This document shows, piece after piece, positions 52,130 through 64,000 of a DNA stretch of 64,000 bases. The DNA comes from a virus. Below the pieces are notes generated by a model. The model saw nothing but the letters and a program-made list of their open reading frames with translations, was not told the DNA's origin and ran no database searches. Numbering within the stretch: position 1 is the stretch's first letter; every line of letters starts with the position of its first letter. The position numbers were made by a program, and so were the translations under genes. Location: UHGV virus genome UHGV-1430915. The stretch is one strand, 5' to 3'.

Positions 52130-54420
52130 ACACAATTAGTTGCCCGGCTAAAGTGCTGGAAGCACCCATAACATCTTCCAACTAAATTTCCTACCAACAC
52201 AGTTACTTACCCACCACACATGACTGTTTGCTTGTTTAGTGAGCAGTCATCCCTTGACATTCTTGCCTATCTTGATAAAATTAAGTTCTTCTCTTTTCTT
52301 TTACCGAGTAATTCGGGTTTTCTGTTCTCTTCGGTTTGAAGGGGTATGGAGATACACCTGAGTGAACAGGGTGAACAACCGAACCTTTAGCTATGGCATT
52401 AGCATGGCGAAGCGGACGGGTGACGAAAGAGGGGCCGGAGGACACCAGTCACTGCCATATAGTATATGGGTGATAACCTGAAGAGTCTGAATAAGTGTTT
52501 AAGTACCAGTCAGAGGAAAAGGTGAATGGTAGCCGAAGGGGGAGGGGGGTTTCTTATATCTTTAATTTGTATACTTTATATACACTTGTAAACCAATTCA
52601 ATTAGGATCTGTTTACCACACAAAGTGGATGGAGACAAATATCACCTATTAAACTTGAATTATTTATAGAAAATACCACAACACTACTTAAGTCTTTGAT
52701 TTTACACACAAATCCTACAGATATTCACCCTCCATATTTAACATACTTGTAACATATCCCATACTCTACCTGTCTGATCAATTTACCCAACTACATCCCC
52801 ATATTTTTCCTGTCTGTACTACCCCTGCCCCGCCGGGAGTCTCGTCATATCTGGCTTCCCAGCAAATATCACACCCACAAATATCATTGCCTGAAGAGGG
52901 TTTCATCCCATAATACATGCCTTACCTGAAGAGGGTTTCATACACCACGTAAATTTTTTAATTGACCTCCCCTGCCCCGCCGGAGAGGTTGGCTTTTCCC
53001 ACACAGACCTGAAGAGTCGGCCAGAAATATCTGAATAGGTCCAGTTCTGCCCTGTCATGAGCGGTAGCGACTGGAGTGCTGCCAGGCGGACGGAATGGGA
53101 ATACTTCTCATTTTTATAATAATTCTCAAATATCGAGGCAGTGAGGCAAATTAATAGGTCAGGCCGTTCACACAGTGGCACAACATTTGCAATCTATCTT
53201 GTGGGAGTGAATGAGAATACCTATCATTGTGAGAATGGTTATCATTACGGGCAATTTAACATAATACCCATTATGCGCACCACTGGCGATACATACAGGG
53301 ATTGATAACATGGGTTACTGTTTACGCACATAACAATTATATTTCTTACTATTTGTGCGGGATATAGTTAGCAACCAATAGATTAGATATTGACCTGCGG
53401 ACTTCTGACCGTCCAGACGTCTAAACGCCCACACAATAAGGGTTATACATACATTCCTGAATGTAAACAGGGCCGCAAAAATGCTACCATACCAGTTTGT
53501 AAATTTTTCATGCAGCACTTGACAAAGAGGAGAAAAACTTGTCTGACACTTTTGCCACTTTTGACACAATATGACACAATAACGGCTGTTACTATTCCAT
53601 ATCTCACTGTTTACGCATAGACTGTTTACGCCTGAATAGTTTACGCCCAAACTGTTTACACAGAGATGATAAGCCATGCCATTCGTTTGCATGAAAACAA
53701 TTAACAAGATAACAATTAACAAGTTAATAATCTTTCGCTGGCTATGCCAGGTGACTAGGTCACCCCTTCGGGCGTTTATATGACATAATATAAAAGCAGG
53801 GCAACTATTAGAAGATCTATAGTTGCCTTACTTGTTATGTCATGATTAACTAAATACAAGGCAACTATGATCTGAGTAATAGATTGCAGAAAAACTATCA
53901 CGGGGGTGATGGTTACTGCTTTTATATTATGTCGCGACTCCGTCGCGCCATGCCATTCGTTTGCATAGTTGCCTTATTGTTACAGGTAAAATAATTACAT
54001 TATTAATTATTTCTTATCTTTCTCTTAGTCATCTAATGATTCCAGTCAGTATAGTAATGTACAGTAAACATTAGACGACTAAAGATTTCTCTGTTTATGA
54101 TAACTCATCGTGATAATTTCGGGCTGTTTACGAAAAATGTTGACACCTGAGCTGATTTATGTTATGCAGTTTACACGAATAATTATTTTATGCAGGTATT
54201 AACTATTCCGTTATTCTGTGGTTGGAATAAATACTTTGCAGGCTATAGAATGGCGTGCGTACGTGAATTCTGAGATCTGGCGGCTATAGTTATACTCGAT
54301 TTTTCGCGTAGAACACGCTTTAGATGCTGTGTAAGTGTATGACTTATAAAGATTTTTAGTTGTTGACAAGATATTGGAGATGTGCATCAGGTTAAAATTT
54401 GTGCAATAGCGGCATTACGT
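52130..54420. repeat. 2.3-kb ORF-free repeat-rich region (candidate origin, terminus or regulatory hub)
   Basis: no credible ORF; cctgaagag motif x4, cccctgccccgccgg x2, ~13-bp-period tgtttacgc iterons x4, catgccattcgtttgcat x2, acaattaacaag x2, palindromes ggtgac-tag-gtcacc and cgcgac-tcc-gtcgcg, ~19-bp inverted repeat flanking 53780-53935. Confidence 0.6.
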
Positions 54421-54580
54421 GCACTTTTGGGAGAGAAAACGGGTAAAAATGGACTTGCTACCACACAATGAAAAATTATGCAATAGTTATTTTCCATGTA
54501 TATTTGTACAGTATGTGGGATTGATGGCTAGTCAATTATTCCACTTGCCAGGTAGGGCCGTTTATGGTAGGAGAAGAGCA

Positions 54581-54607
54581 GACAAAAAGAAAGGGGCCTA
54601 AGCCCCT
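54581..54607 (-). terminator. intrinsic terminator at 3' end of minus-strand small-gene block
   Basis: minus-strand stem AGGGGC/GCCCCT followed by TTTCTTTTTGTC. Confidence 0.6.
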
Positions 54608-54626
54608 TGATAATTCAGTTAAAAAA

Positions 54627-55046
54627 TTATAATGATTCGTATATTTCAAAAATCCGATTTGCCAGGTCGTTACGGTAGCTGAATTTTTCCTCACGTTTGA
54701 TCATAAGATCTTTATAGCCGTACTCTTTAAGCACTTCATTAACTTTATGGCGGCATACTTTCATATTATCCTGCGCGTCACCAATAAATCTGTTGCTATG
54801 GTGCATGGCTTTAATTTCTTCTTCCAGGACCAGGGCAACTATGCGGACCGGATCAAGCTGATAGGCGGTAACATCCATGCGGCATTGTAAACGGCTTTTT
54901 ACGTCTGCCACCGGATATACTGCAACCTCTTCCCCGTCAACATTGACAATAATTAGTTTACCATCGATTTCGAATCCTTTCGCCGCCGGACCGTGACAAA
55001 AAGCGTTATCAAAGCTATATGCCGGATTATTAGATTTAATGTTCAT
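54627..55046 (-). CDS. hypothetical protein
   Basis: 139-aa ORF with upstream promoter and RBS. Confidence 0.55.
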   Translation of the reverse strand: MNIKSNNPAYSFDNAFCHGPAAKGFEIDGKLIIVNVDGEEVAVYPVADVKSRLQCRMDVTAYQLDPVRIVALVLEEEIKAMHHSNRFIGDAQDNMKVCRHKVNEVLKEYGYKDLMIKREEKFSYRNDLANRIFEIYESL

Positions 55047-55094
55047 GGTGTTTTTACCTCTTAGTTAATTTTCTTACAACTTCCCTTCAAAAAA

Positions 55095-55123
55095 GAATAT
55101 AGCAAAACTGCCGATCCCTGTCA
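55095..55123 (-). promoter_or_regulatory. sigma70-like promoter
   Basis: minus strand TTGACA-17 nt-TATATT. Confidence 0.6.
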
Positions 55124-55190
55124 ACCAGGGATAGCATAATTTTTATGTGATCAAGGGGCTTTATTGCCCCTGACCATGTAACTTGTTGTA

Positions 55191-55454
55191 TTATTTGTTG
55201 CTCATCCAGTTTTCCCAAGCTGCCTGATAATCTGCCTCACTACGGCGGATCTCTTCTTGCTCTTCAAGGCGGATCTCTTCTTCCAGGTACCCCAAGATGT
55301 CAGCCTTTTTAGTCTGGCGTAGCATCCAGTCATCTTTTTTGCGAGTGAAGATCTTATAAGCTTTCTCGCAAACCTCTTTTTTGCTACCTTTCTGGACTTC
55401 AAGAACACGATAAGCCATATATTGAACTAATTTGAGCTGATCAAGACGTTTCAT
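55191..55454 (-). CDS. hypothetical protein
   Basis: 87 aa; 5' leader has hairpin GGGCC-tttt-GGCCC then CACAAAGAGG. Confidence 0.5.
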   Translation of the reverse strand: MKRLDQLKLVQYMAYRVLEVQKGSKKEVCEKAYKIFTRKKDDWMLRQTKKADILGYLEEEIRLEEQEEIRRSEADYQAAWENWMSNK

Positions 55455-55514
55455 GATGTTTACCTCTTTGTGCGGTTCTGATTAGTGGGCCTTTTGGCCC
55501 GTGTCATTATCTTA

Positions 55515-55787
55515 TTACTTATGGCGGCAGAATTCAAGCGTTTTTAATTGATAATCTTCCTCAGCTTGGAGTACGACCGCCTCGATCATTTCGTTGGCAT
55601 TGTTAAAGCCATAACCTTTAGCGAACTCATCCGCGCCACCTTCGTGATCATGTTCTGCGTTCATCGCTTCCACAAAATGGAATTCCAAATTGTTGAGGTA
55701 GGGGCTTGATGTTCCGTCCTCTTTTTCGATGAGATCCCAAATAGCATTAAAACGTGATTCGACTTCTTGATTAATCCAGCTTGACAT
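55515..55787 (-). CDS. hypothetical acidic protein
   Basis: 90 aa; leader hairpin GGGCA-cttt-TGCCC. Confidence 0.5.
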   Translation of the reverse strand: MSSWINQEVESRFNAIWDLIEKEDGTSSPYLNNLEFHFVEAMNAEHDHEGGADEFAKGYGFNNANEMIEAVVLQAEEDYQLKTLEFCRHK

Positions 55788-55841
55788 AGTGTTTTCCTCT
55801 CTCCTGGTTGTTGTGTGGGCACTTTTGCCCCTTCAAGATAA

Positions 55842-55870
55842 ATGTTACCTCACCCCATGGCAGATGTCAA
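55842..55870 (-). promoter_or_regulatory. sigma70-like promoter
   Basis: minus strand TTGACA-17 nt-TAACAT. Confidence 0.5.
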
Positions 55871-56004
55871 CGGTTTTTATAGTTCTTATATGACAGGCAG
55901 GCCCGGTGATTGTCTCCCCCTGTTCCCAAGTGCCGCCCGTTTAATAAGAATAGCAAAAGGGGCCGAACAAGTCAACCCCAAAATCAGTACCAAAACACTT
56001 TTAT

Positions 56005-56316
56005 TTATACGGTCCGATCATTGGCCTTTGTCCAGGACCTGGCGATCCGTTTCCCGGTCACCTGGAACGGAGGCTGCATTGTGTGTAATGAGTCCAGAGT
56101 AAGGGAGGACCGTTTACGGCGTATCTTCAGGATCGCTAACGTATTGTCCATCTCACGGCCAGGTCCTGGGCGGTATGGTGTGCCTCCAGCGTTAAGGTTG
56201 ATGATCTCATGTATTGAGATCCGGCGTTGTTTTGCTTCCGCATCTTTGAAGATAGCCAGCGGAGGCGCTATGCGTTGCCGATACCAATCTAAAACGGTTG
56301 GCGTAATAGCGATCAT
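56005..56316 (-). CDS. hypothetical protein
   Basis: 103-aa ORF; ATGA overlap with upstream gene. Confidence 0.4.
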   Translation of the reverse strand: MIAITPTVLDWYRQRIAPPLAIFKDAEAKQRRISIHEIINLNAGGTPYRPGPGREMDNTLAILKIRRKRSSLTLDSLHTMQPPFQVTGKRIARSWTKANDRTV

Positions 56317-56504
56317 ATTTTACCCCCTATGTAGTCCGGTCGGTTTTTCTCTGTCATACGCTTAAGCAATTCTTGCATGTTGCTTATGGCTTGTAGTGTA
56401 TCCTCTTCAAGGGATGAATCAAGATAATCAGGATCATTCTTCACCTTGCAATGATTATGATAACGCAGCACCGCCAGTACTTTTTTAACTTCTTCCGCTG
56501 TCAT
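56313..56504 (-). CDS. hypothetical protein
   Basis: 63-aa ORF. Confidence 0.45.
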   Translation of the reverse strand: MTAEEVKKVLAVLRYHNHCKVKNDPDYLDSSLEEDTLQAISNMQELLKRMTEKNRPDYIGGKI

Positions 56505-56649
56505 TATCGCGCCTAAAACAATGAGTTAATATATAACACCAGATCGCTGACTACCAGGACAACATTAATCAGCACATACCTAACCATAAAGGGAAAGATC
56601 GCCAACATTGCCTCCACGATCCCCATGGTAATAATTATCTTTCTCATGG

Positions 56650-56934
56650 TTAACGGTTCACGTAAGTTTTCCCGTTTACGGTTATCGGCAGATCCTCCAG
56701 GTCTGGATCTTCTTTAAGGTCGTGAGCAAGTTCACCGCACCGAACGCCCTCGAATCCGTAGTACTCTGTCGTGCCATCCTGGAAAGTTTTAGCGGCAAGG
56801 CATAGGCGATAAGTAACACCGATTTGATTGACGGCATGGATATCAGTTAGATCTACCTCTTTTGCCAGCTCTTTGGCCATTACAGGCGCATTAAGTCCAA
56901 CAACCAGGGCAACCACTGCGATCATCTTTTTCAT
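56650..56934 (-). CDS. secreted or periplasmic protein
   Basis: N-terminal signal-peptide-like MKKMIAVVALVVGLNAPVMA. Confidence 0.55.
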   Translation of the reverse strand: MKKMIAVVALVVGLNAPVMAKELAKEVDLTDIHAVNQIGVTYRLCLAAKTFQDGTTEYYGFEGVRCGELAHDLKEDPDLEDLPITVNGKTYVNR

Positions 56935-57025
56935 TGTATCTATCCTCTTTCTGCTACGTTTAAGGCGGCGGCAACCGCCTGTTTATGCTTTGTTGGTTAA
57001 TTTTCGGGTATCGGTATAAATTAAA

Positions 57026-57241
57026 CTATACTGTACGCTCAACTATAACAACGGCTTGAGGGATCTCACCTTCCACCACTATCAAGGCTTTTTTCTGCGT
57101 AATGGATATCTTTACCCGCTTCAGCGTGGCGGTAAAGTCTTTCATTTCGTCGCGTGGTGTTTTAGTGCAATGCCAGATCTCAGGCTTACCTATTTGCAAG
57201 CCGCGTAAAAATTCTGTTTTGCCTGTTTTGTTAGTGATCAT
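57026..57241 (-). CDS. hypothetical protein
   Basis: 71-aa ORF. Confidence 0.45.
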   Translation of the reverse strand: MITNKTGKTEFLRGLQIGKPEIWHCTKTPRDEMKDFTATLKRVKISITQKKALIVVEGEIPQAVVIVERTV

Positions 57242-57250
57242 TTGCCAACC

Positions 57251-57355
57251 TCACCCGATACCGTTGGAAGACAAGATCACATTAGCCATGGTTGCAATCA
57301 GGCCAATACCTAGGGCAATAACCAGGATCACCGCATCAATTAATTTCTGTTTCAT
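57251..57355 (-). CDS. small membrane peptide (34 aa)
   Basis: not in ORF track; ATG after AGAGGAAAACAAA; MKQKLIDAVILVIALGIGLIATMANVILSSNGIG. Confidence 0.4.
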   Translation of the reverse strand: MKQKLIDAVILVIALGIGLIATMANVILSSNGIG

Positions 57356-57445
57356 TTTGTTTTCCTCTTCTTGTTCCAGGTGGCGGACCATTCCACCGCC
57401 TTATGTATTATGCTTTGTAAGATGGTTGTTTGTTTTCAAACTATT

Positions 57446-57625
57446 TTAACGATAATCATCGTACGCTTTATTAACCTGGCGAATATAACATTCAAAAGCC
57501 AGATCAATAGATTTATATTCACGGATATACTCACCATAGGAAACCACATACATTTCTATAGCTTCCTCATATGCGAGGAGAATAGAATCCAAGCCTACGA
57601 TCTCAGTCTTTGCAATAATAGCCAT
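57446..57625 (-). CDS. hypothetical protein (59 aa)
   Basis: not in ORF track (below 60 aa); leader CCACAAAGAGGATAAAAATC-ATG with upstream hairpin GGGGC-ttg-CCCC. Confidence 0.45.
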   Translation of the reverse strand: MAIIAKTEIVGLDSILLAYEEAIEMYVVSYGEYIREYKSIDLAFECYIRQVNKAYDDYR

Positions 57626-57696
57626 GATTTTTATCCTCTTTGTGGTTGGTGGGGCTTGCCCCTTTGATTTATATACTACAGTCTTATAGGGTCATG

Positions 57697-57930
57697 TCAA
57701 CTATTTTCAAAAAATTTTTCTGCTGTGATATTCTTCCCGGTCGGATTAGCTACTTTTAAAATTCTATCATGCACCGGACGCCCAAAAGAATAAGATCCGT
57801 ATACAGTAAACCAATAATCGCCGTCGGGCTGCACTATTACCGCTGCATAGGGTACGCCTTTTTCGTTATTGTTTACAAAATAGATCACATTGCCGTTAAT
57901 AGCCTCGGCGCGTTTAACTTGTTCAATCAT
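57697..57930 (-). CDS. hypothetical protein
   Basis: 77 aa; leader hairpin GGGGCC-ttttc-GGCCCC. Confidence 0.5.
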   Translation of the reverse strand: MIEQVKRAEAINGNVIYFVNNNEKGVPYAAVIVQPDGDYWFTVYGSYSFGRPVHDRILKVANPTGKNITAEKFFENS

Positions 57931-57993
57931 GATGATTTACCCCTCTTTATTTTTTTCATAATTTCAGGAGGGGCCTTTTCGGCCCCGCCAGGT

Positions 57994-58278
57994 TTATTTA
58001 TTGATGGCGTGCAACGGGAAAGGTACGCCAGGTTGATAAATAACTTTTACAACCTCATCAGGGCAAAAGAAATTGCAGAATTCTCCCCGGTAAGCTTCAT
58101 CTTCTTTTAATTCTTCGTCAACATACTCAAAAAAGTAGTCGATGCTTGGATAATCCTGGCCGGGATTATAGTCGACCATCGTTAATAGTAACTCTTGATC
58201 ATTCCGTAGGATATGCATACCCGCTTTTAAGTATTTTGCTTCCATTTCTACTACATCGCCAACGGTAACAATAGCCAT
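57994..58278 (-). CDS. hypothetical acidic protein
   Basis: 94 aa; leader hairpin GGGGGC-cg-CCCCC. Confidence 0.5.
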   Translation of the reverse strand: MAIVTVGDVVEMEAKYLKAGMHILRNDQELLLTMVDYNPGQDYPSIDYFFEYVDEELKEDEAYRGEFCNFFCPDEVVKVIYQPGVPFPLHAINK

Positions 58279-58505
58279 GGTTTTAACTCCTATCTATCCG
58301 GTTAATGATTGGGGGCCGCCCCCCTGATACGTCCTATTATCCATATTGTAGGGCTTGATGCAAGTACTTCTTTAAATTTTTTTTTTAAGCGCCTTGGGGG
58401 CCGCTGTAACGCTAAAATAATAAAGGCCATGCAACCGCATAGCCTTTATGTGATTATATCGCTTCAGGCCCTGCTAGGGGCCTTATTTTGCATCATTTGC
58501 CGGAA

Positions 58506-58805
58506 TTATTCAGAGAAAACATCGTTCACAATAGCGATCACAATGCCGCCCACCTTGTCACGGTCAACAATGCACAAATCACCATAGATCATGTGGTAGT
58601 CTGGATGATCTTTCACGGAATAGTCAATGAGCGTTTTCTTGTCGTCCAGCTTTGTAACTTCCATTCTCATAACGATACGAGAATCATCAAAGGCATTATT
58701 CCGAAAAGTCATAGCCTGACCACCAGGGCACCCAGTGATCTCCACTTCCACGCCGTCTACGATCTGACCATCAAAGAAATAAAGATTATTGGCGGGTATA
58801 AACAT
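58506..58805 (-). CDS. hypothetical protein
   Basis: start moved to ATG 58805 (MFIPANN...) because AAAGGAG RBS lies inside track N-terminus. Confidence 0.5.
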   Translation of the reverse strand: MFIPANNLYFFDGQIVDGVEVEITGCPGGQAMTFRNNAFDDSRIVMRMEVTKLDDKKTLIDYSVKDHPDYHMIYGDLCIVDRDKVGGIVIAIVNDVFSE

Positions 58806-58850
58806 GATCATTGCTCCTTTTTGCACTGATTATTTTAACAGGGTTTAAAT

Positions 58851-58894
58851 TTACTTTATTGATGGCCCTGGAGTCAAGGCCATCTAAAAATAAA
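58851..58894. repeat. 44-bp intergenic repeat, copy 1
   Basis: ttactttattGATGGCCctggagtcaaGGCCATCtaaaaataaa; 7-bp inverted repeat; TTGACT on minus strand in loop. Confidence 0.85.
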
Positions 58895-58896
58895 TT

Positions 58897-59097
58897 TTAC
58901 AGATCTACAATCTCTTTAATTCGTTTTACTGCTGCCTCAGCGCCTTGAGGGTAGAAATTATGATAACCAATCACGCGGGTAATACTGATCGCCGCTTGGT
59001 GGTCCTCGTAGTCGCCTTTGAATATTTCTTGACCATCAACCAGCACAGCAATTTTTTCTTCTTTTTTGAAGTTAATAACGCGGATATTGTTGCTCAT
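58897..59097 (-). CDS. hypothetical protein
   Basis: 66 aa; leader hairpin GGGGAG-tgt-CTCCCC. Confidence 0.5.
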   Translation of the reverse strand: MSNNIRVINFKKEEKIAVLVDGQEIFKGDYEDHQAAISITRVIGYHNFYPQGAEAAVKRIKEIVDL

Positions 59098-59242
59098 TTT
59101 GTTTCTCCTTTTGGAACTTTGTCTGTGTGGTGGGGAGTGTCTCCCCGTTGATTGTTATTATCCATATTCTGGACCGGATTGCAACATTCAGGAAGAAAAA
59201 TTTTTTGAAAAAAGTTAGGCCCCCAGGGATCGGGGGCCGTTA

Positions 59243-59362
59243 TCAGTTGCTTACAGCGATAAAATACATCCCTACGCCTAACAATATTTCAAGGGCGATG
59301 ATCTCCAGCCATACCATAACACGGCGCGCCTTATCGGTGCGGGGCTTATCCTTGGGTGTCAT
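59243..59362 (-). CDS. small membrane peptide (39 aa)
   Basis: not in ORF track; ATG after AGGAGG; C-terminal hydrophobic segment; partly overlaps another small TM ORF (59346..59471). Confidence 0.35.
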   Translation of the reverse strand: MTPKDKPRTDKARRVMVWLEIIALEILLGVGMYFIAVSN

Positions 59363-59581
59363 CGTCTCCCTCTTTCCTCCTGTTAGTAGTGACGTGGTTT
59401 ACAATGGTCCCCAGGAGTACTATCGCCACGCACATTACGAGAAAAATTATTTCTTCCGTTGTTCGGTCCATTGTTATAAAACCTCTCAAGATCAGGCCTA
59501 AAAGTAAATCTTTCGTTATTGAATCCGTCACGCCAGGCGGCTGGCTTCAAATCTTCACTAAATGGATTAATTAACGTGGCA

Positions 59582-59953
59582 TTATTTAAACGGTTGGCCC
59601 ACATATTTTCTATTCCTCTCAAATAGGCGATCCGCCTCAGTTAAACATATCTCATGGGCGTGATCTCTGGTTTTAGCTTCATCAAAAACCTGTTGTGCAA
59701 GGCTGCAACGTAGGGAGACTGGAAGATCACTATAATAGGCGTTGACAAACGTTTGAGCGTCGTACAGGTCTGAAAATACTTTACCCTTTCTATTATTCCC
59801 CTTGTCAACAATTGCAAGGATAACCAATACAATAGTTGCAACCACCCCCAGGAAAATAGATATAATAAACCATAAAAAGGCGGATCTTCCCATCTTGCCA
59901 GCGATCCAGGCGTTAAACAAGGCAACCAATATAGCCAAAATAATAAATTCCAT
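59582..59953 (-). CDS. membrane protein with two TM helices
   Basis: MEFIILAILVALFNAWIA and FLWFIISIFLGVVATIVLVILAIV then soluble C-terminal domain. Confidence 0.55.
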   Translation of the reverse strand: MEFIILAILVALFNAWIAGKMGRSAFLWFIISIFLGVVATIVLVILAIVDKGNNRKGKVFSDLYDAQTFVNAYYSDLPVSLRCSLAQQVFDEAKTRDHAHEICLTEADRLFERNRKYVGQPFK

Positions 59954-60019
59954 TCTATGTACCCTCTTACAATTCTGCGTAGCAATAAGGCGGCAAATAT
60001 GCCGCCGCCTGTTACCTGA

Positions 60020-60400
60020 TTAAAAATTATCGCCGTAAATCTTTCCGCTTTCTACCCATACCACCACGCGAGGCATACTATCCCACACGTCTTGTTTTAG
60101 ATTGAGCGCGTGCAATTCTTCGGTGGTGCTCATACCGGGCACGGGCTGATTGTATACTGCAAAACGACCACCCGCATAATCATAGGCCAGGGTTAAATCA
60201 CACTGGATCATCTTTTTGATCATGGCATTAAGCATGGCGTTAGCCGCATATTGATCACGTTTTAAAGGCAACTCTTTGATTAGTTTGCGATAGTTTTCGA
60301 TATGGTCGCACACTGTTTCACGAGGAAGATCTTTCATATCTTCACGGAATGTAACCAGGTTAAACATAACGGTGTCAATAGCCTTGGTAGTGTTTTTCAT
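60020..60400 (-). CDS. hypothetical protein
   Basis: start set at ATG 60400 after CAAAGAGGAAAACATC; leader hairpin 60422-60441. Confidence 0.5.
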   Translation of the reverse strand: MKNTTKAIDTVMFNLVTFREDMKDLPRETVCDHIENYRKLIKELPLKRDQYAANAMLNAMIKKMIQCDLTLAYDYAGGRFAVYNQPVPGMSTTEELHALNLKQDVWDSMPRVVVWVESGKIYGDNF

Positions 60401-60489
60401 GATGTTTTCCTCTTTGTTTTGTGTGGGGCAAGTCATCTCGCCCCTTGAGTTTTAATATAGCAGGTTTTTAGATTATTGCAACACTTTAT

Positions 60490-61113
60490 TTATGAAAAAC
60501 TCATCTCCCCATATTCATCCACATCAAACCGCCAATCATTGGCTTCAATAAGGCCGATCAGGTTTTCGGTAGTAAACTGTTCAAGATAGGCCCCCTCCAG
60601 GTCTACGTAAACCTTGCGGGATAGCTCCCGTACCGTCTCGGTGATCAGCTCTTCCAGCTCTTCAACTTTATCCTCTTGCTTGGTGGTCAGGTCTAGCCAA
60701 TTAGTATCGATGCACCCTCCTATTGTGTTTTCGTGGTGATAATGGCTAAACGGGATACGTTCAACACTAGCTGATAACTCGCCATCGTGCATTGTGCCGA
60801 ACAAGTGACGAATTGATCGGAACTTGGTCAGGGCCTTGACTTTACGCAAGAATTTTTCTAAATCCACGTTTTCAGCACTGATTGACGCGCCATCGCCTTG
60901 ACACCAAAAGCCGGACCAACGTACTTCGGTATCTTCAAGGCCGTACTCTGGAAAGACATATTCTTTATAGTGTTCAATTACGCTTTCTGCAAAAAAATTA
61001 TCCCCGCTGTGTTCTTCTCTTTCGCGTACCATTTCAATGGCTTTTTCTTTTTGTTCGTCGGTCAGCACGTCGAAAGATAAATTGTAACCTGTGGTAATGT
61101 TAACGGTGGTCAT
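60490..61113 (-). CDS. hypothetical acidic protein
   Basis: 207 aa; own promoter and leader hairpin. Confidence 0.55.
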   Translation of the reverse strand: MTTVNITTGYNLSFDVLTDEQKEKAIEMVREREEHSGDNFFAESVIEHYKEYVFPEYGLEDTEVRWSGFWCQGDGASISAENVDLEKFLRKVKALTKFRSIRHLFGTMHDGELSASVERIPFSHYHHENTIGGCIDTNWLDLTTKQEDKVEELEELITETVRELSRKVYVDLEGAYLEQFTTENLIGLIEANDWRFDVDEYGEMSFS

Positions 61114-61130
61114 GATATTTTCTCCTGTTT

Positions 61131-61149
61131 TCTTTGTTAGTGGCGGGAA
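61131..61149 (-). promoter_or_regulatory. conserved 5'-leader hairpin GGCGGGAA-N4-TTCCCGCC
   Basis: perfect 7-8 bp stem just downstream of predicted transcription start; near-identical copy at 63661-63679, partial copy at 62983-62995. Confidence 0.5.
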
Positions 61150-61159
61150 GTTTTCCCGC

Positions 61160-61187
61160 CTGTGTGTTTAATTATACTTATTGAGAT
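61160..61187 (-). promoter_or_regulatory. sigma70-like promoter
   Basis: minus strand TTGACA-16 nt-TATAAT. Confidence 0.65.
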
Positions 61188-61448
61188 TTACTTGTCAACA
61201 CTATTTTTTAAATTATTGTGGCGCAAAATGTTTAAAATCTCTTCAACGTCATCAACACGGCGGCAATTTTTAAACGCTACCAATTGCCCCATGATTTTAA
61301 TCACTGGGCGGCCTTGCCAGTGCCCTTGGAGAAAGCGCGCCTTGACTTTATCGGTGGAACTATCACGCCACCAAATAGCCTTGTTGTTGCAGTAGTAAAA
61401 ATTATTCAGGATAACATCAACTTTATCAAAATTTTTTAATTTACGCAT
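61188..61448 (-). CDS. hypothetical protein
   Basis: 86-aa ORF with promoter at 61481-61509. Confidence 0.5.
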   Translation of the reverse strand: MRKLKNFDKVDVILNNFYYCNNKAIWWRDSSTDKVKARFLQGHWQGRPVIKIMGQLVAFKNCRRVDDVEEILNILRHNNLKNSVDK

Positions 61449-61480
61449 GGCGTTTACTCCTTCCTCTCTTTGATGTGGTT

Positions 61481-61509
61481 AGTATAGCTAACCTGTTGAC
61501 GATGTCAAT
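61481..61509 (-). promoter_or_regulatory. sigma70-like promoter
   Basis: minus strand TTGACA-17 nt-TATACT. Confidence 0.6.
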
Positions 61510-61666
61510 GATATTTTTAACGCCATAAAACGGCCCTGGGCGATGTTTTCAGGTTAAAGGGGGCGATTGCATAGGCGGGGGCCTTTTTGGCGCTTACAGG
61601 GCCAACCAGGGGCGCTATTCGTAGGATAGAAATAAAAAGCCCCGCACAATGGCGGGGCGTTGGTTG

Positions 61667-61864
61667 TTATTTGTCTTTATGGCGGTATCGTTCTGCCTGT
61701 CGTTCACGTTCCAAAAGTAGGCCGGGCAATTTACGATCATAATGATTACGCCAGATCTTCCCAAACCTTTTTGGCTTATTCAGTTTATTGTTACGCTGGC
61801 GGCGTTCTGGCAGCTCTTCGGAATCATGAGGGCGCTTTACAATTTTCTCGAAATTAATTTTCAT
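61667..61864 (-). CDS. small highly basic protein
   Basis: start set at ATG 61864 after GGGGG; Arg/Lys-rich. Confidence 0.5.
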   Translation of the reverse strand: MKINFEKIVKRPHDSEELPERRQRNNKLNKPKRFGKIWRNHYDRKLPGLLLERERQAERYRHKDK

Positions 61865-62207
61865 ATATTCCCCCTTTGCTAACTTCAATATTGGCCTGAA
61901 TAGCCCGGATACGGCGCTTTATAACTTCCTGATCTGTGTGGTCGTATCCCCAAAAGTCTACAATTTTTGCGCCACCCGCCTCCAGGCGGTATAGTGTTTC
62001 CTGCATTTTGTAAGCCGGGATCGGTCGCGGTGTTACTTGGTCACCTTCTTTATTTTTATACTTTATAATATAATCTTCGTTATCGTTGAATGCCCAAAAT
62101 GGATATTCTGCAAGGGCGGTACTTCCTCTTTCCTTTTTATCCTGGATCTTATTTACAATTAAAGCCGTAGCAATAGCGCCAATAATAAAACTAGCCCCGC
62201 TAATCAT
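61854..62207 (-). CDS. membrane-anchored protein
   Basis: N-terminal TM segment ISGASFIIGAIATALIV. Confidence 0.5.
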   Translation of the reverse strand: MISGASFIIGAIATALIVNKIQDKKERGSTALAEYPFWAFNDNEDYIIKYKNKEGDQVTPRPIPAYKMQETLYRLEAGGAKIVDFWGYDHTDQEVIKRRIRAIQANIEVSKGGIYEN

Positions 62208-62283
62208 GTGTACTTTCTCCTTTCATGGTGTTAATAAATTATCTTTATAGATGGCCCTGCAACCAGGACCACCGAAAAAATAA

Positions 62284-62529
62284 CTATTTCACAATGCCTA
62301 CAAAACAGATCCCACCTTCACCTATGTAAGCAATATCGGTAACTTTATAATTTGTCAAGATCTGTTTATTTAGTTCATTAATAAAATCGGTCATTGCGTT
62401 GGTGTAGTTGTCTTCCATATCTAAGGCATAATCCCAGGCGTAAACCTTTTTACGTCCGAAGCCTTTTACCATGATACGGGCGCTTTTGGTGTTGGTGGGC
62501 GCATAATATTTGGTGATTAGTGCTGCCAT
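62284..62529 (-). CDS. hypothetical protein
   Basis: 81-aa ORF downstream of repeat copy 2, GAGGAG RBS. Confidence 0.5.
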   Translation of the reverse strand: MAALITKYYAPTNTKSARIMVKGFGRKKVYAWDYALDMEDNYTNAMTDFINELNKQILTNYKVTDIAYIGEGGICFVGIVK

Positions 62530-62570
62530 GGTTTTAACTCCTCATTAGTTCAGTGTTAACAGTGTAAAGT

Positions 62571-62614
62571 TTACTTTATTGATGGCCCTGGAGTCAAGGC
62601 CATCTAAAAATAAA
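62571..62614. repeat. 44-bp intergenic repeat, copy 2
   Basis: identical to 58851-58894. Confidence 0.85.
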
Positions 62615-62615
62615 T

Positions 62616-62957
62616 TTACTCGTTTTCTTCCAGCTCTGAAAGCTCTTCTTTCACTTCTTCGAGCTCTGTCTGCAATTCTTGGTACTCTTCATCGTCCTCA
62701 ATATCCAGGCTGTCGATGTAGTCGCTAAATCCGCAGCGGTAAGCGATAGGATCTAGCTCCTTGAGGATACGCGACGGAAGAAAAGAAATGTTTCCGATCA
62801 TAATTTCGCCGTAGATCTCGTCTAACCATTCATCATAGTTTTCGTCGTACTTGTCCTCGTCGATTTCAAAGTTATCGATCTTGTTCTCAAGGTCTGCGAT
62901 CTGTTTTTTCAGCGCGGCGATCTGCATAGCTTTTTCTGCGGCGGTCATAGTAGTCAT
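62616..62957 (-). CDS. highly acidic coiled-coil protein (candidate DNA mimic)
   Basis: 113 aa, very Asp/Glu-rich C-terminal half. Confidence 0.55.
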   Translation of the reverse strand: MTTMTAAEKAMQIAALKKQIADLENKIDNFEIDEDKYDENYDEWLDEIYGEIMIGNISFLPSRILKELDPIAYRCGFSDYIDSLDIEDDEEYQELQTELEEVKEELSELEENE

Positions 62958-63008
62958 GGTGTTTTCTCCTTTTGTGTGTTCTGGGAAGTTTTCCCGTTTA
63001 CGTGTTTA

Positions 63009-63036
63009 AGTATACCGATTTGGGTTAGCTTGTCAA
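63009..63036 (-). promoter_or_regulatory. sigma70-like promoter
   Basis: minus strand TTGACA-16 nt-TATACT; followed by leader hairpin 62983-62995. Confidence 0.6.
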
Positions 63037-63191
63037 TTAAAAATTTAAGAAAAATTTTGCAAAACTGTTGGCGCTACTCATTAACATTTGCGCCAGGATG
63101 TAACCGACAACGCAAACGATAATAGTTACCTTTGTGTATTGGCGTGTAGTGCTCATCTTAAAGCCCCCTTTTTCGCTTAACTGAGATTAGT

Positions 63192-63235
63192 TTACTTTAT
63201 TGATGGCCCTGGAGTCAAGGCCATCTAAAAATAAA
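63192..63235. repeat. 44-bp intergenic repeat, copy 3
   Basis: identical core to 58851-58894. Confidence 0.85.
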
Positions 63236-63236
63236 C

Positions 63237-63641
63237 TTAGTAAGTTTTCAGTACTTTCCCGTCCAACCTGTCAAGCTGGATCTCGATAGCTGCAGAAAAC
63301 CTATTGTACACCACGTCGCCCATGGAATCCAACCAGTCTATGACGTTATACACTTGCTCTTTGTTCTTGCAGGTCCGGATCCGTTTCATGATGTAAGCCG
63401 GATCAATATTGGTGCTCTCGTTGGTGCTCCCCTGTACCTGGTTTGCCGTATTAGTCACATCTTTAATGGCCTTTACCACCACCTGGAAGGGCTTTAAGGT
63501 GCCTTTTGCGTTCATCTCACGCGCTTTTGCGGCGCGGTTGTTATAGGTTACACAACGGCGGCAAATGTTCACCAAATGCATGTCAATAATTTTTTCATCG
63601 TTTGCCAGTTCGTTCATGATGCGGCGTACGTTCTTATTCAT
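63237..63641 (-). CDS. hypothetical protein
   Basis: 134-aa ORF with promoter and leader hairpin. Confidence 0.55.
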   Translation of the reverse strand: MNKNVRRIMNELANDEKIIDMHLVNICRRCVTYNNRAAKAREMNAKGTLKPFQVVVKAIKDVTNTANQVQGSTNESTNIDPAYIMKRIRTCKNKEQVYNVIDWLDSMGDVVYNRFSAAIEIQLDRLDGKVLKTY

Positions 63642-63660
63642 GATCTTTTTCCTTTGTGTT

Positions 63661-63679
63661 GGCGGGAAACATTCCCGCC
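63661..63679 (-). promoter_or_regulatory. conserved 5'-leader hairpin GGCGGGAA-N4-TTCCCGCC
   Basis: second copy of the hairpin at 61131-61149. Confidence 0.5.
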
Positions 63680-63689
63680 TTTTGTGACT

Positions 63690-63717
63690 AGTTTACTTGA
63701 ATTTTGCAGCGTGTCAA
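63690..63717 (-). promoter_or_regulatory. sigma70-like promoter (weaker -10)
   Basis: minus strand TTGACA-16 nt-TAAACT. Confidence 0.45.
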
Positions 63718-63722
63718 CAATT

Positions 63723-63966
63723 TTTATTCGTGGGCGCATGTTACAATGTGCTTTTTATAGCCCAGGTGGTTAGCAAGTGCCGACAAAAACTCTTCTTCAT
63801 AGATCCAGCCGTTGGCAGTGATCCCCATAGCATTTAATGCGCTCTCAAGTGCTGCATTAGCTTTATCGTAGCCGTGACCGCTCGCCTTCCCGCCAGTATA
63901 ACCGTACTTATTGTTCTTGTTGTCGTGAATCCAAAAAACGCAGTATTGAGTGTTCCCGCTGGCGGC
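63723..63966 (-). CDS. hypothetical protein, partial (C-terminal part; 5' end lost at contig end)
   Basis: open frame on minus strand from adapter junction down to TAA at 63723-63725 (...GHGYDKANAALESALNAMGITANGWIYEEEF...). Confidence 0.4.
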
Positions 63967-64000
63967 AGATCGGAAGAGCGTCGTGTAGGGAAAGAGTGTA
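63967..64000. other. Illumina TruSeq adapter (sequencing artifact, not biological)
   Basis: agatcggaagagcgtcgtgtagggaaagagtgta matches the standard adapter AGATCGGAAGAGCGTCGTGTAGGGAAAGAGTGT. Confidence 0.95.

Follow-up and report, generated by a model that had tools for sequence, protein, structure and literature searches.

The window analysed here, a stretch of 64,000 nucleotides (nt) from the virus genome UHGV-1430915, belongs to an rV5-like coliphage of the genus Vequintavirus, and its early region of small open reading frames (ORFs) contains a 45-bp intergenic element in three identical copies and one diverged copy, all inside 4.4 kb. In every copy the transcribed strand folds into the same two-tier hairpin; each of the three identical copies follows the first gene behind a canonical sigma-70 promoter; and in related phages the breakpoints of a cassette loss and of a cassette transfer fall at or within the element. 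The reading we favour, at somewhat better than even odds, is that of a composite joint of the kind known as PeSL (promoter-early stem-loop) in T4-like phages, in which an RNA processing or stability hairpin would overlap a weak promoter at the 3′ end of one-gene early cassettes.

The repeated element and its sense-strand hairpin

All genes of the window in this region lie on the minus strand, and "sense" refers to that strand throughout. The original prediction, made from the letters alone, had placed three exact 44-bp copies between small genes, each after a minus-strand stop codon and upstream of the next gene, and a pattern search agrees: the 44-mer matches at 58851-58894, 62571-62614 and 63192-63235, three times in the window against none expected from 100 shuffles. 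Repeat finding (family D1) gives a full triple identity of 45 bp rather than 44 (58850-58894, 62570-62614 and 63191-63235), the preceding T being common to all three. In the sense direction each main copy starts 1-2 nt past a TAA stop (58897-58899, 62616-62618 and 63237-63239), and downstream of each comes the next minus-strand gene, with its Shine-Dalgarno (SD) sequence and ATG within 25-45 nt of the element. The four copies, with the stems and loops of copy 1 as given by RNA folding, are as follows.

58843..58902, minus strand: copy 1, an exact repeat with a two-tier hairpin, after the TAA (58899-58897) of a 66-aa gene
58896-58887/58857-58848, minus strand: lower stem of copy 1
58884-58875/58870-58861, minus strand: upper stem of copy 1
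58886-58885 and 58860-58858, minus strand: internal loop of copy 1
58874-58871, minus strand: tetraloop of copy 1, ACUC
62563..62622, minus strand: copy 2, with the architecture of copy 1 (upper stem 62604-62595/62590-62581), after the TAA (62618-62616) of a 113-aa gene
63184..63243, minus strand: copy 3, with the architecture of copy 1 (upper stem 63225-63216/63211-63202), after the TAA (63239-63237) of a 134-aa gene
62232..62291 (about; ~62225-62291 by repeat finding), minus strand: diverged fourth copy, ~60% identical, after the TAG (62286-62284) of an 81-aa gene

A 7-kb query around the element matches 222 phage records, 78 of which cover at least 80% of the query at ~90-95% identity, and the 44-mer itself is present in 121 GenBank phage records, typically in 3 places per genome and mostly at 100% identity. 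Murica, isim, Gotham, rV5, EI-SP-GF, V18 and CM1 share syntenic sites for it. Across seven genomes the elements are 97-99% identical, compared with 88-96% for the neighbouring genes and 85-96% for other intergenic DNA. An assembly artefact, the caveat attached to the original prediction, is excluded because about 120 Vequintavirus genomes have the element at these sites, and the search for further copies in the genome and in related phages that it had proposed was productive, yielding the diverged fourth copy as well as these ~121 positive records. Beyond the four copies, a covariance model finds no further members in the 64-kb window, the remaining rV5 genome, the Justusliebigvirus loci or the T7 early region, and none of 5,426 complete E. 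coli genomes has a match. A scan of IMG/VR with GATGGCCYTGNNNNCARGGCCATC returned 25 stretches, among which covariance-model scoring recognises true members on two rV5-like contigs only, the remaining stretches having the G/C palindrome alone in common with the element. Outside the rV5-like phages there is one occurrence only, a recombinational transfer into phage KKE7M that is described below. Literature searches turned up neither the element sequence, nor repeats in rV5-like early regions, nor a transcriptome of rV5-like or phi92-like phages, and the rV5 genome paper, which lists 33 promoters and 20 terminators, mentions no repeats; by these searches the element is undescribed for this phage group. 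As a separate observation on the databases, ~17-22 "Campylobacter phage" records in the GenBank MG0656xx series (e.g., MG065677.1 and MG065659.1), with C. jejuni given as host, also carry the element and are 93-95% identical to this coliphage region, and their host and organism assignment looks doubtful.

On the sense strand every copy has the same fold. The two flanks, one T-rich and one A-rich, pair as a 10-bp A/U lower stem whose start lies at the stop codon or next to it; a 2x3 internal loop follows; and a 10-bp G/C upper stem (GAUGGCCUUG/CAGGGCCAUC, with one U.G pair) carries, in the main copies, the tetraloop ACUC. The 7-bp inverted repeat and the minus-strand TTGACT of the original prediction are both present, but its 10-nt loop is not, the stem of the sense RNA reaching 10 bp via U.G and leaving a loop of 4 nt. 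The second 10-bp stem in the T-rich and A-rich flanks, the fourth copy, a -10-like TAAAYT and the wide occurrence in GenBank had all escaped it, and neither the promoter reading nor the PeSL precedent appears there. In all four paralogs the upper stem starts 10-12 nt past the stop codon. Folding energies of the main copies in the sense direction run from -23.6 to -25 kcal/mol with z scores of -4.8 to -6.7 (copy 1, -23.6 kcal/mol, z -4.8; copy 2, -24.3 kcal/mol, z -6.6; copy 3, -25.0 kcal/mol, z -6.7), against -16 to -17 kcal/mol and z ~-2 to -3 for the plus strand, where the RNA folds much worse because the G.U pairs turn into C x A mismatches. Covariance-model scores are likewise ~72-84 bits for sense and ~35-43 bits for antisense, with 80.8 bits for copy 1 (41.5 on the plus strand), 81.4 for copy 2, 84.3 for copy 3 and 71.7 for the diverged copy. 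The last has the tetraloop GUUG and no TTGAC, and its fold, at -24.1 kcal/mol (z -5.7; only -8.5 on the plus strand), has a dot-bracket identical to that of the main copies, with two extra G.U pairs and A-U/U-A swaps.

The window and 10 related loci supplied 34 copies, with 23 distinct sequences among them, for a structure alignment. Standard pairs occupy 98.5% of its cells, a figure that drops to 36-56% when the 3′ partners are shifted by 1-3 columns. Pairing is 100% in the upper helix, whose three variable pairs switch only between G.U and Watson-Crick, and the lower helix has two-sided changes in four pairs (for example U-A to C-G, or A-U to G-C or U-A). Where the main copies vary, they do so only at positions 3-4 of the tetraloop (ACUC, ACUU, ACGC and ACAC), in the 3′ strand of the internal loop and at the extreme ends. 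On an IMG/VR contig, copy 3 occurs as a variant (L026) whose two-tier fold is intact, its loop having 5 nt and U-A replacing U.G. We are highly confident that the sense-strand hairpin is real, and the RNA structure is the primary constrained feature of the element.

The same pairing pattern bears on the suggestion, made in the original prediction, of a protein recognition site, by which a dimeric phage or host protein would bind the DNA palindrome, whether as a repressor or activator over the -35 or as a recombination protein. The -35-like hexamer is indeed flanked by 7-bp perfect inverted repeats; a passage of a recent preprint indicates that terminator palindromes can double as transcription-factor sites (10.64898/2026.08.19.745784), and the PeSL authors speculated on a stem-loop-binding recombination protein (PMC2839356). 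However, the symmetry is kept via G.U pairs, which amount to C x A mismatches in duplex-DNA half-sites and in the antisense strand; the diverged copy is asymmetric at 2 of 10 positions, yet its RNA pairing is perfect; and protein binding to the palindrome gives the conserved lower stem and internal loop no role. No candidate protein was identified, the flanking proteins matching only PHROG families of unknown function, and we consider a DNA-binding site of this kind very unlikely.

Other uses of the sequence were tried and rejected. The main copies share a 10-codon mini-ORF, ATG GCC TTG ACT CCA GGG CCA TCA ATA AAG TAA, located as follows.

58861-58893, 62581-62613 and 63202-63234, minus strand: mini-ORF, wholly inside each main copy

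It has no SD sequence, its frame and length are altered in the L026 variant, and the A/T-rich flanks are full of stops; it was judged coincidental. Cleavage of the RegB type at GGAG was rejected, GGAG occurring on the untranscribed plus strand only, as was occlusion of the ribosome-binding site, the hairpin ending 25-45 nt upstream of the next SD sequence.

Termination, processing and the promoter-like motif

The statement of the original prediction that neither strand has a U-tract is borne out. The nine bases after the stem are AAUAAAGUA, and the element is not a classical terminator because no U-tract follows the hairpin. With its U-rich tract 5′ of the stem on both strands, the element reads in either direction as a terminator turned "inside-out". 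Of the parts of an intrinsic terminator, a G/C hairpin leading directly into a U-tract, the element has the hairpin only, and a terminator scan of the region did not call it. Three nearby terminators were called, true ones of the region with T-tracts, at the ends of transcription units.

59238-59218, minus strand: T-tract terminator (terminator scan)
60006-59989, minus strand: T-tract terminator (terminator scan)
61658-61639, minus strand: T-tract terminator (terminator scan)

A purely terminating or attenuating hairpin, which would stop or reduce read-through and so insulate the cassettes, with the promoter-like hexamers optional, has some precedent nonetheless. Murica annotators labelled two of the copies as terminators, a PeSL stem-loop cut lacZ expression as strongly as rrnB T1 (PMC2839356), and a stem-loop over the -35 followed by a -10 matches the layout of promoter-coupled terminators (10.64898/2026.08.19.745784), of which the window contains a genuine example at 55979-55947. 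It is the T-tract, however, that defines both intrinsic and promoter-coupled terminators, and the stem here is followed by AAUAAAGUA, with a U-tract on neither strand, in a phage that ends its units with proper T-tract terminators. Moreover, termination needs no lower stem, yet covariation supports the lower stem. Termination alone thus strikes us as improbable.

For processing, the natural comparison is with the early intercistronic sites of phage T7. When folded, the five T7 early intercistronic gaps give an upper stem of 9-13 bp, a loop of 3-5 nt, an internal loop and a lower stem, and in the same folding comparison these gap sites form a family of similar sequences; the cleavage positions R0.3, R0.5, R1, R1.1 and R1.3, which are unannotated in the RefSeq record, we take to be those of Dunn & Studier 1983. 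The element, with its 10 + 10 bp making about two helical turns, its 2x3 internal loop, its tetraloop and its support from covariation, has the geometry of a T7 ribonuclease III (RNase III) site, and to that extent the idea of an RNase processing site in the original prediction gains by analogy. Tandem minus-strand genes flank the element, with sigma-70 promoters upstream and no intervening terminator, and these genes are presumably co-transcribed; E. coli transcripts show an enrichment of RNase III sites between their genes (PMC6212723). Since a U-tract is lacking and the geometry is that of T7 R sites, the most likely role of the hairpin, by this analogy, is in processing or stability and not in termination.

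The DNA of the element can also be read as a promoter. In the sense direction it runs from a UP-like T-tract (TTTATTTTTA) through GATGGCC, TTGACT and an 18-bp spacer to TAAA(C/T)T, the -35 being split evenly between the end of the upper-stem 5′ arm and the start of the loop, with 3 nt in each, and the -10 being formed by the 3′ end of the lower stem.

58848..58877, minus strand: promoter-like motif of copy 1, TTGACT (58877-58872), 18 bp, TAAATT (58853-58848); 9/12 in the consensus scan, and comparison with the phage's own promoters
62568..62597, minus strand: promoter-like motif of copy 2, TTGACT, 18 bp, TAAACT; consensus scan and comparison with the phage's own promoters
63189..63218, minus strand: promoter-like motif of copy 3, TTGACT, 18 bp, TAAACT; consensus scan and comparison with the phage's own promoters

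The -10 context of copy 3, AAAGTAAACTAATC, resembles the CAAGTAAACTAGTC of the canonical promoter at 63717-63690, and AGTAAACT is the -10 region in the canonical promoters at window position 63717, in muut and in EC.P2. TTGAC is kept through the loop variants, as TTGACT, TTGACG or TTGACA, the last being a perfect -35 in V18. All other intergenic gaps of more than 50 nt in 58.5-64 kb hold a canonical promoter. Existing annotations disagree: two copies are terminators in Murica, two (copies 1 and 2) are promoters in Gotham, as called by PhagePromoter, and rV5 has neither.

One could argue from this that the element is a promoter only, an early sigma-70 promoter with an UP element, the palindrome being incidental or an operator. 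The TTGACT-18-TAAAYT motif with its T-rich upstream tract, the PhagePromoter predictions at Gotham copies 1 and 2, the -10 module held in common with canonical promoters, the KKE7M junction inside that module and the promoter in every other gap of this size in the region would all follow. Yet the diverged copy and the L026 variant (15- or 20-bp spacing, fold conserved) keep the fold and lose the -35 or the spacing, and variation avoids both stems, even at spacer positions that a promoter would leave unconstrained. Strand-specific pairing through G.U points to RNA; moreover, the spacer is atypical for the phage, and the curated rV5 annotation calls no promoter there. A promoter-only function is, to our minds, decidedly doubtful. 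Judged from the motif, it is plausible instead that the three main copies act secondarily as promoters; we give this even or slightly better chances, and the activity is probably weak.

A stricter proposal is that the element is fully bifunctional, the loop of an RNase III-type hairpin serving as the -35 of a working promoter and the lower stem as both UP element and -10. We advance this only tentatively, as a possibility with the odds against it. If it is true, one and the same sequence would cut and stabilise the upstream mRNA, restart transcription for the next gene and provide the homology by which cassettes move between subfamilies.

Early cassettes and their exchange

All three main copies come after the first gene behind a canonical sigma-70 promoter and a hairpin in the 5′ untranslated region (5′-UTR). 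The promoter hexamers span 59184-59157, 63036-63009 and 63717-63690 for the cassettes of copies 1, 2 and 3.

59128..59184, minus strand: canonical early promoter (TTGCAA, 16 bp, GATAAT) and 5′-UTR hairpin; starts the 66-aa cassette (59097-58897), which ends in copy 1
62983..63036, minus strand: canonical early promoter (TTGACA, 16 bp, TATACT) and 5′-UTR hairpin GGGAAAACTTCCC; starts the 113-aa cassette (62957-62616), which ends in copy 2
63661..63717, minus strand: canonical early promoter (TTGACA, 16 bp, TAAACT) and 5′-UTR hairpin GGCGGGAATGTTTCCCGCC; starts the 134-aa cassette (63641-63237), which ends in copy 3

The early promoters form a pattern of their own. On the minus strand at, for example, 61142-61198, 62983-63036 and 63661-63717, TTGACA-16/17-TAnnnT is followed ~10 nt on by a conserved 5′-UTR hairpin. 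Hairpins of the GGCGGGAAnnnTTCCCGCC type make up a second repeated family of promoter plus stem-loop (repeat families D4 and D10), which corresponds to the PeSL subclass with the stem-loop downstream of the -10, and homologues of these early promoters are present in Justusliebigvirus phages.

Comparison with related phages reveals two blocks that are bounded by the element and differ in presence between genomes.

62615..63235, minus strand: repeat-to-repeat unit of 621 bp, consisting of copy 3, a 39-aa gene, a promoter and the 113-aa gene; absent in phiWec189 and ECP26
62570..63037, minus strand: block of promoter, 113-aa gene and element; 98% identical in KKE7M

phiWec189 and ECP26 lack exactly one repeat-to-repeat unit. 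Their alignment to the window stops at 62627 and restarts at 63189, and the copy that remains is a hybrid with the upstream flank of copy 3 and the downstream flank of copy 2; the 621-bp indel thus has its breakpoints within copies 2 and 3. The Justusliebigvirus KKE7M, which belongs to another subfamily, the Stephanstirmvirinae, has acquired a 468-bp block of promoter, 5′ hairpin, 113-aa gene and element that is absent from its relatives (muut, EC.P2 and ~280 other records). The homology stops exactly at the 3′ (sense) edge of the element and at the promoter -35. In muut the site is empty, and in EC.P2 it is occupied by an alternative cassette that ends in AATAAAGTAAACT, with TTGCAA 16 bp upstream. 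Relative to muut, the left crossover lies in the promoter spacer, between TTGACAAGATAACTAAAATC and GATATACT, and the right one in AGTAAA, which is both the 3′ end of the element and the resident -10. The resident promoter of muut reads TTGACA-16-TAAACT, then 11 nt, then a 5′-UTR hairpin; in KKE7M the TAAATT of the element stands exactly 11 nt from the same 5′-UTR hairpin, which is the spacing of a real -10.

The element offers crossover points because its copies are identical and because ordinary early promoters have a -10 region homologous to its 3′ end. Loop variants are shared within genomes, both V18 copies having ACAC and rV5 copies 1 and 2 having ACUU, and gene conversion is thereby indicated. 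In a related observation, the annotation of rV5 (NC_011041) notes a similarity to RB49 genes for the early-region ORFs 205, 206, 209, 210 and 231. RB49 is where PeSLs were first discovered, and these RB49-like genes are compatible with cassette traffic between the groups.

This history also bears on the question of mobility. The original prediction had allowed for the footprint of a small mobile insertion sequence, and a broader alternative would add a MITE- or REP-like element, the target of a homing endonuclease or an artefact of assembly. Short, identical, palindromic intergenic repeats associated with presence/absence polymorphism of cassettes are what such an origin might leave behind. 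Yet a MITE- or REP-like element should have many dispersed, non-syntenic copies, in the host or in unrelated genomes among others, and none was found in the 5,426 E. coli genomes; there are 3+1 copies only, in one orientation and at syntenic sites in ~120 independent isolates; the IMG/VR occurrences are restricted to rV5-like contigs, and the one occurrence outside the group is the transfer into KKE7M; neither target-site duplications nor a transposase was seen; and homologous crossovers in promoter and element sequence account for the junctions. This alternative is largely refuted, and what probability we still assign to it is close to negligible. Mobility itself survives in another form, since recombination within the element adds, removes and horizontally transfers the cassettes that it bounds.

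Combining these strands, a cassette would consist of a strong sigma-70 promoter, a 5′-UTR hairpin, a small gene and then the element as its 3′ joint. At the RNA level, the hairpin probably does not stop E. coli RNA polymerase and would act post-transcriptionally, as an RNase III-type processing signal, a barrier to 3′ exonucleases or both, and processing would release a stable monocistronic mRNA capped by a hairpin at each end. At the DNA level, a weak sigma-70 promoter in the same 45 bp would re-initiate transcription for the next gene. Over evolutionary time, recombination in the element deletes or inserts cassettes, and one cassette has been carried in this way into another subfamily.

Several results weigh against this scheme. 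The covariation comes from few independent lineages (effective sequence number 3.25, two main lineages), and the pairing of a T-rich with an A-rich tract is partly free of charge. In Gotham, copy 3 has a 5-nt deletion that abolishes the hairpin with the gene order unchanged, so at least that copy is dispensable. The element has no sequence homology to T7 R sites (covariance model on the T7 early region; BLAST matches to rV5-like phages only), and an Rfam scan of 54000-64000 at E<=1 gave no matching family and two sub-threshold chance matches only; the element is therefore at most an analogue of the T7 RNase III signals. On the promoter side, the match is 9/12, and 33 such matches were found where 22.7 are expected by chance; the spacer is 18 bp, compared with 16-17 bp in the canonical early promoters of the phage; and a -35 is missing from the diverged copy, so that promoter function is not a property of the whole family. 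Finally, rV5_ev146 (LR699804.1), which has one copy and a genome ~4.5 kb shorter, might be thought to derive from recombination between copies 1 and 3, but this is wrong, the breakpoints being elsewhere: its deletions of ~5.8 kb and ~0.5 kb join ~55911 to 61719 and ~63144 to 63648. Since these deletions do not use it, the element is one recombination linker among several. The rV5_ev146 breakpoints may lie in other repeated regulatory sequences.

The practical interest of the element comes from the phages that carry it. rV5-like phages are widely used in therapy and biocontrol, and almost all of their ~100 small early genes are of unknown function. Self-contained cassettes would explain how the early region stays expressible despite gene shuffling, and the KKE7M block is evidence at the nucleotide level that Vequintavirinae and Stephanstirmvirinae exchange cassettes. 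The PeSL concept would also be extended beyond the T4-like phages. Should the element be fully bifunctional in the sense proposed above, it would be an "expression cassette joint" that is portable and found in phages other than the T4-like ones, with a hairpin that works by processing and not by termination. Because annotation is inconsistent (terminator in Murica, promoter in Gotham, nothing in rV5), a correct description would improve it. For the more utilitarian purpose of phage engineering, the element, should its hairpin prove to be an RNase III or stability signal laid over a promoter, would be a compact natural part for building insulated, stable monocistronic units into phage genomes.

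Three further observations concern other parts of the window. The window closes with 34 bases (63967-64000) of Illumina adapter, AGATCGGAAGAGCGTCGTGTAGGGAAAGAGTGTA; no relative is homologous beyond 63966, which identifies it as untrimmed adapter at the contig end. In the AT-rich stretch 13440-13700, four tandem 21-22-nt units of GTGTCCGTATCACGGACAGTTA at 13538-13623, each an inverted repeat TGTCCGT..ACGGACA and apparently non-coding, look like iterons or operators, and the region may be regulatory or an origin. The 20-nt sequence GCCATGCCATTCGTTTGCAT is present at 53673-53692 and again, unchanged and in direct orientation, at 53947-53966, a spacing of 274 bp (family D15).

Relation to known repeated elements

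The intercistronic hairpins of E. coli of the REP/BIME type protect upstream mRNA from 3′ exonucleases. The element resembles them as a short imperfect palindrome that comes right after stop codons inside operons, has no U-tract and probably stabilises the upstream cistron; it differs in being phage-specific and absent from the host genome, in its very few copies and in its promoter motif.

In promoter-coupled terminators, for which a T-tract is required (Fletcher et al., bioRxiv 2026, 10.64898/2026.08.19.745784), the DNA of the stem-loop doubles as the -35 and the -10 lies a few bp past the hairpin, between tandem genes, and this arrangement is reproduced in the element. The T-tract between stem and -10, however, is replaced by the A-rich AAUAAAG, and termination is therefore unlikely. 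The window has the layout in full elsewhere: on the minus strand at 55979-55947, the hairpin GGGGTTGACTTGTTCGGCCCC is followed by TTTTGC and TATTCT, a stem-loop terminator with its T-tract holding the -35 of the next promoter.

The RNase III signals of T7 are closer in structure. They too are similar intercistronic sequences of ~40-60 nt in early transcripts made by the host RNA polymerase, with ~20 bp in total, divided by an internal loop into a lower stem and a ~10-bp upper stem topped by a small loop, and with no U-tract after it, and for the element, as for them, the predicted products are stable monocistronic mRNAs that end in a 3′ hairpin. The differences are that the internal loop of the element is smaller (2x3), that it has no sequence homology to them, and that the T7 R sites have no host promoter. 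By analogy, the element would work like a T7 RNase III signal and not be a member of that family.

The most complete parallel is with the PeSLs, known from the T4-like phages RB49/phi1, T4/PST and KVP40/nt-1 (Arbiol et al. 2010, PMC2839356; Comeau et al. 2014, PMC4122927). A PeSL is a repeated composite of sigma-70 promoter, AT-rich tract and stem-loop that runs from stop codon to SD/ATG; five subclasses are distinguished, one with the stem-loop overlapping the -35, and indels fall at the motifs (PMC2839356). PeSLs mediate the modular shuffling of ORFan cassettes, and promoter and terminator activities as well as mini-circles have been shown for them (PMC2839356; PMC4122927). The element differs in belonging to the Vequintavirinae, in having no sequence similarity to PeSLs and no GGGG/CCCC stem or U-tract, in its 3+1 nearly identical copies, where PeSLs number dozens and are looser, and in a two-tier hairpin that embeds the whole promoter, with the lower stem made of the UP-like tract and the -10 region. 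As for the promoter component, the element has a 9/12 match with TTTATTTTTA upstream, of a kind frequent by chance, with an atypical spacer and with the -35 missing from the diverged copy. Several further hallmarks of PeSLs are present: a repeated composite motif concentrated in the plastic early, ORFan-rich region; an order of stop codon, -35/-10 with stem-loop, and SD/ATG, the element extending from 1-2 nt after the TAA to 25-45 nt before the next SD/ATG; a stable stem-loop of ~-24 kcal/mol with U.G pairs and with the -35 in its apical stem and loop; and, the rV5_ev146 indels excepted, the breakpoints of indels and replacements in related phages (phiWec189/ECP26 and KKE7M) lying in the motifs.

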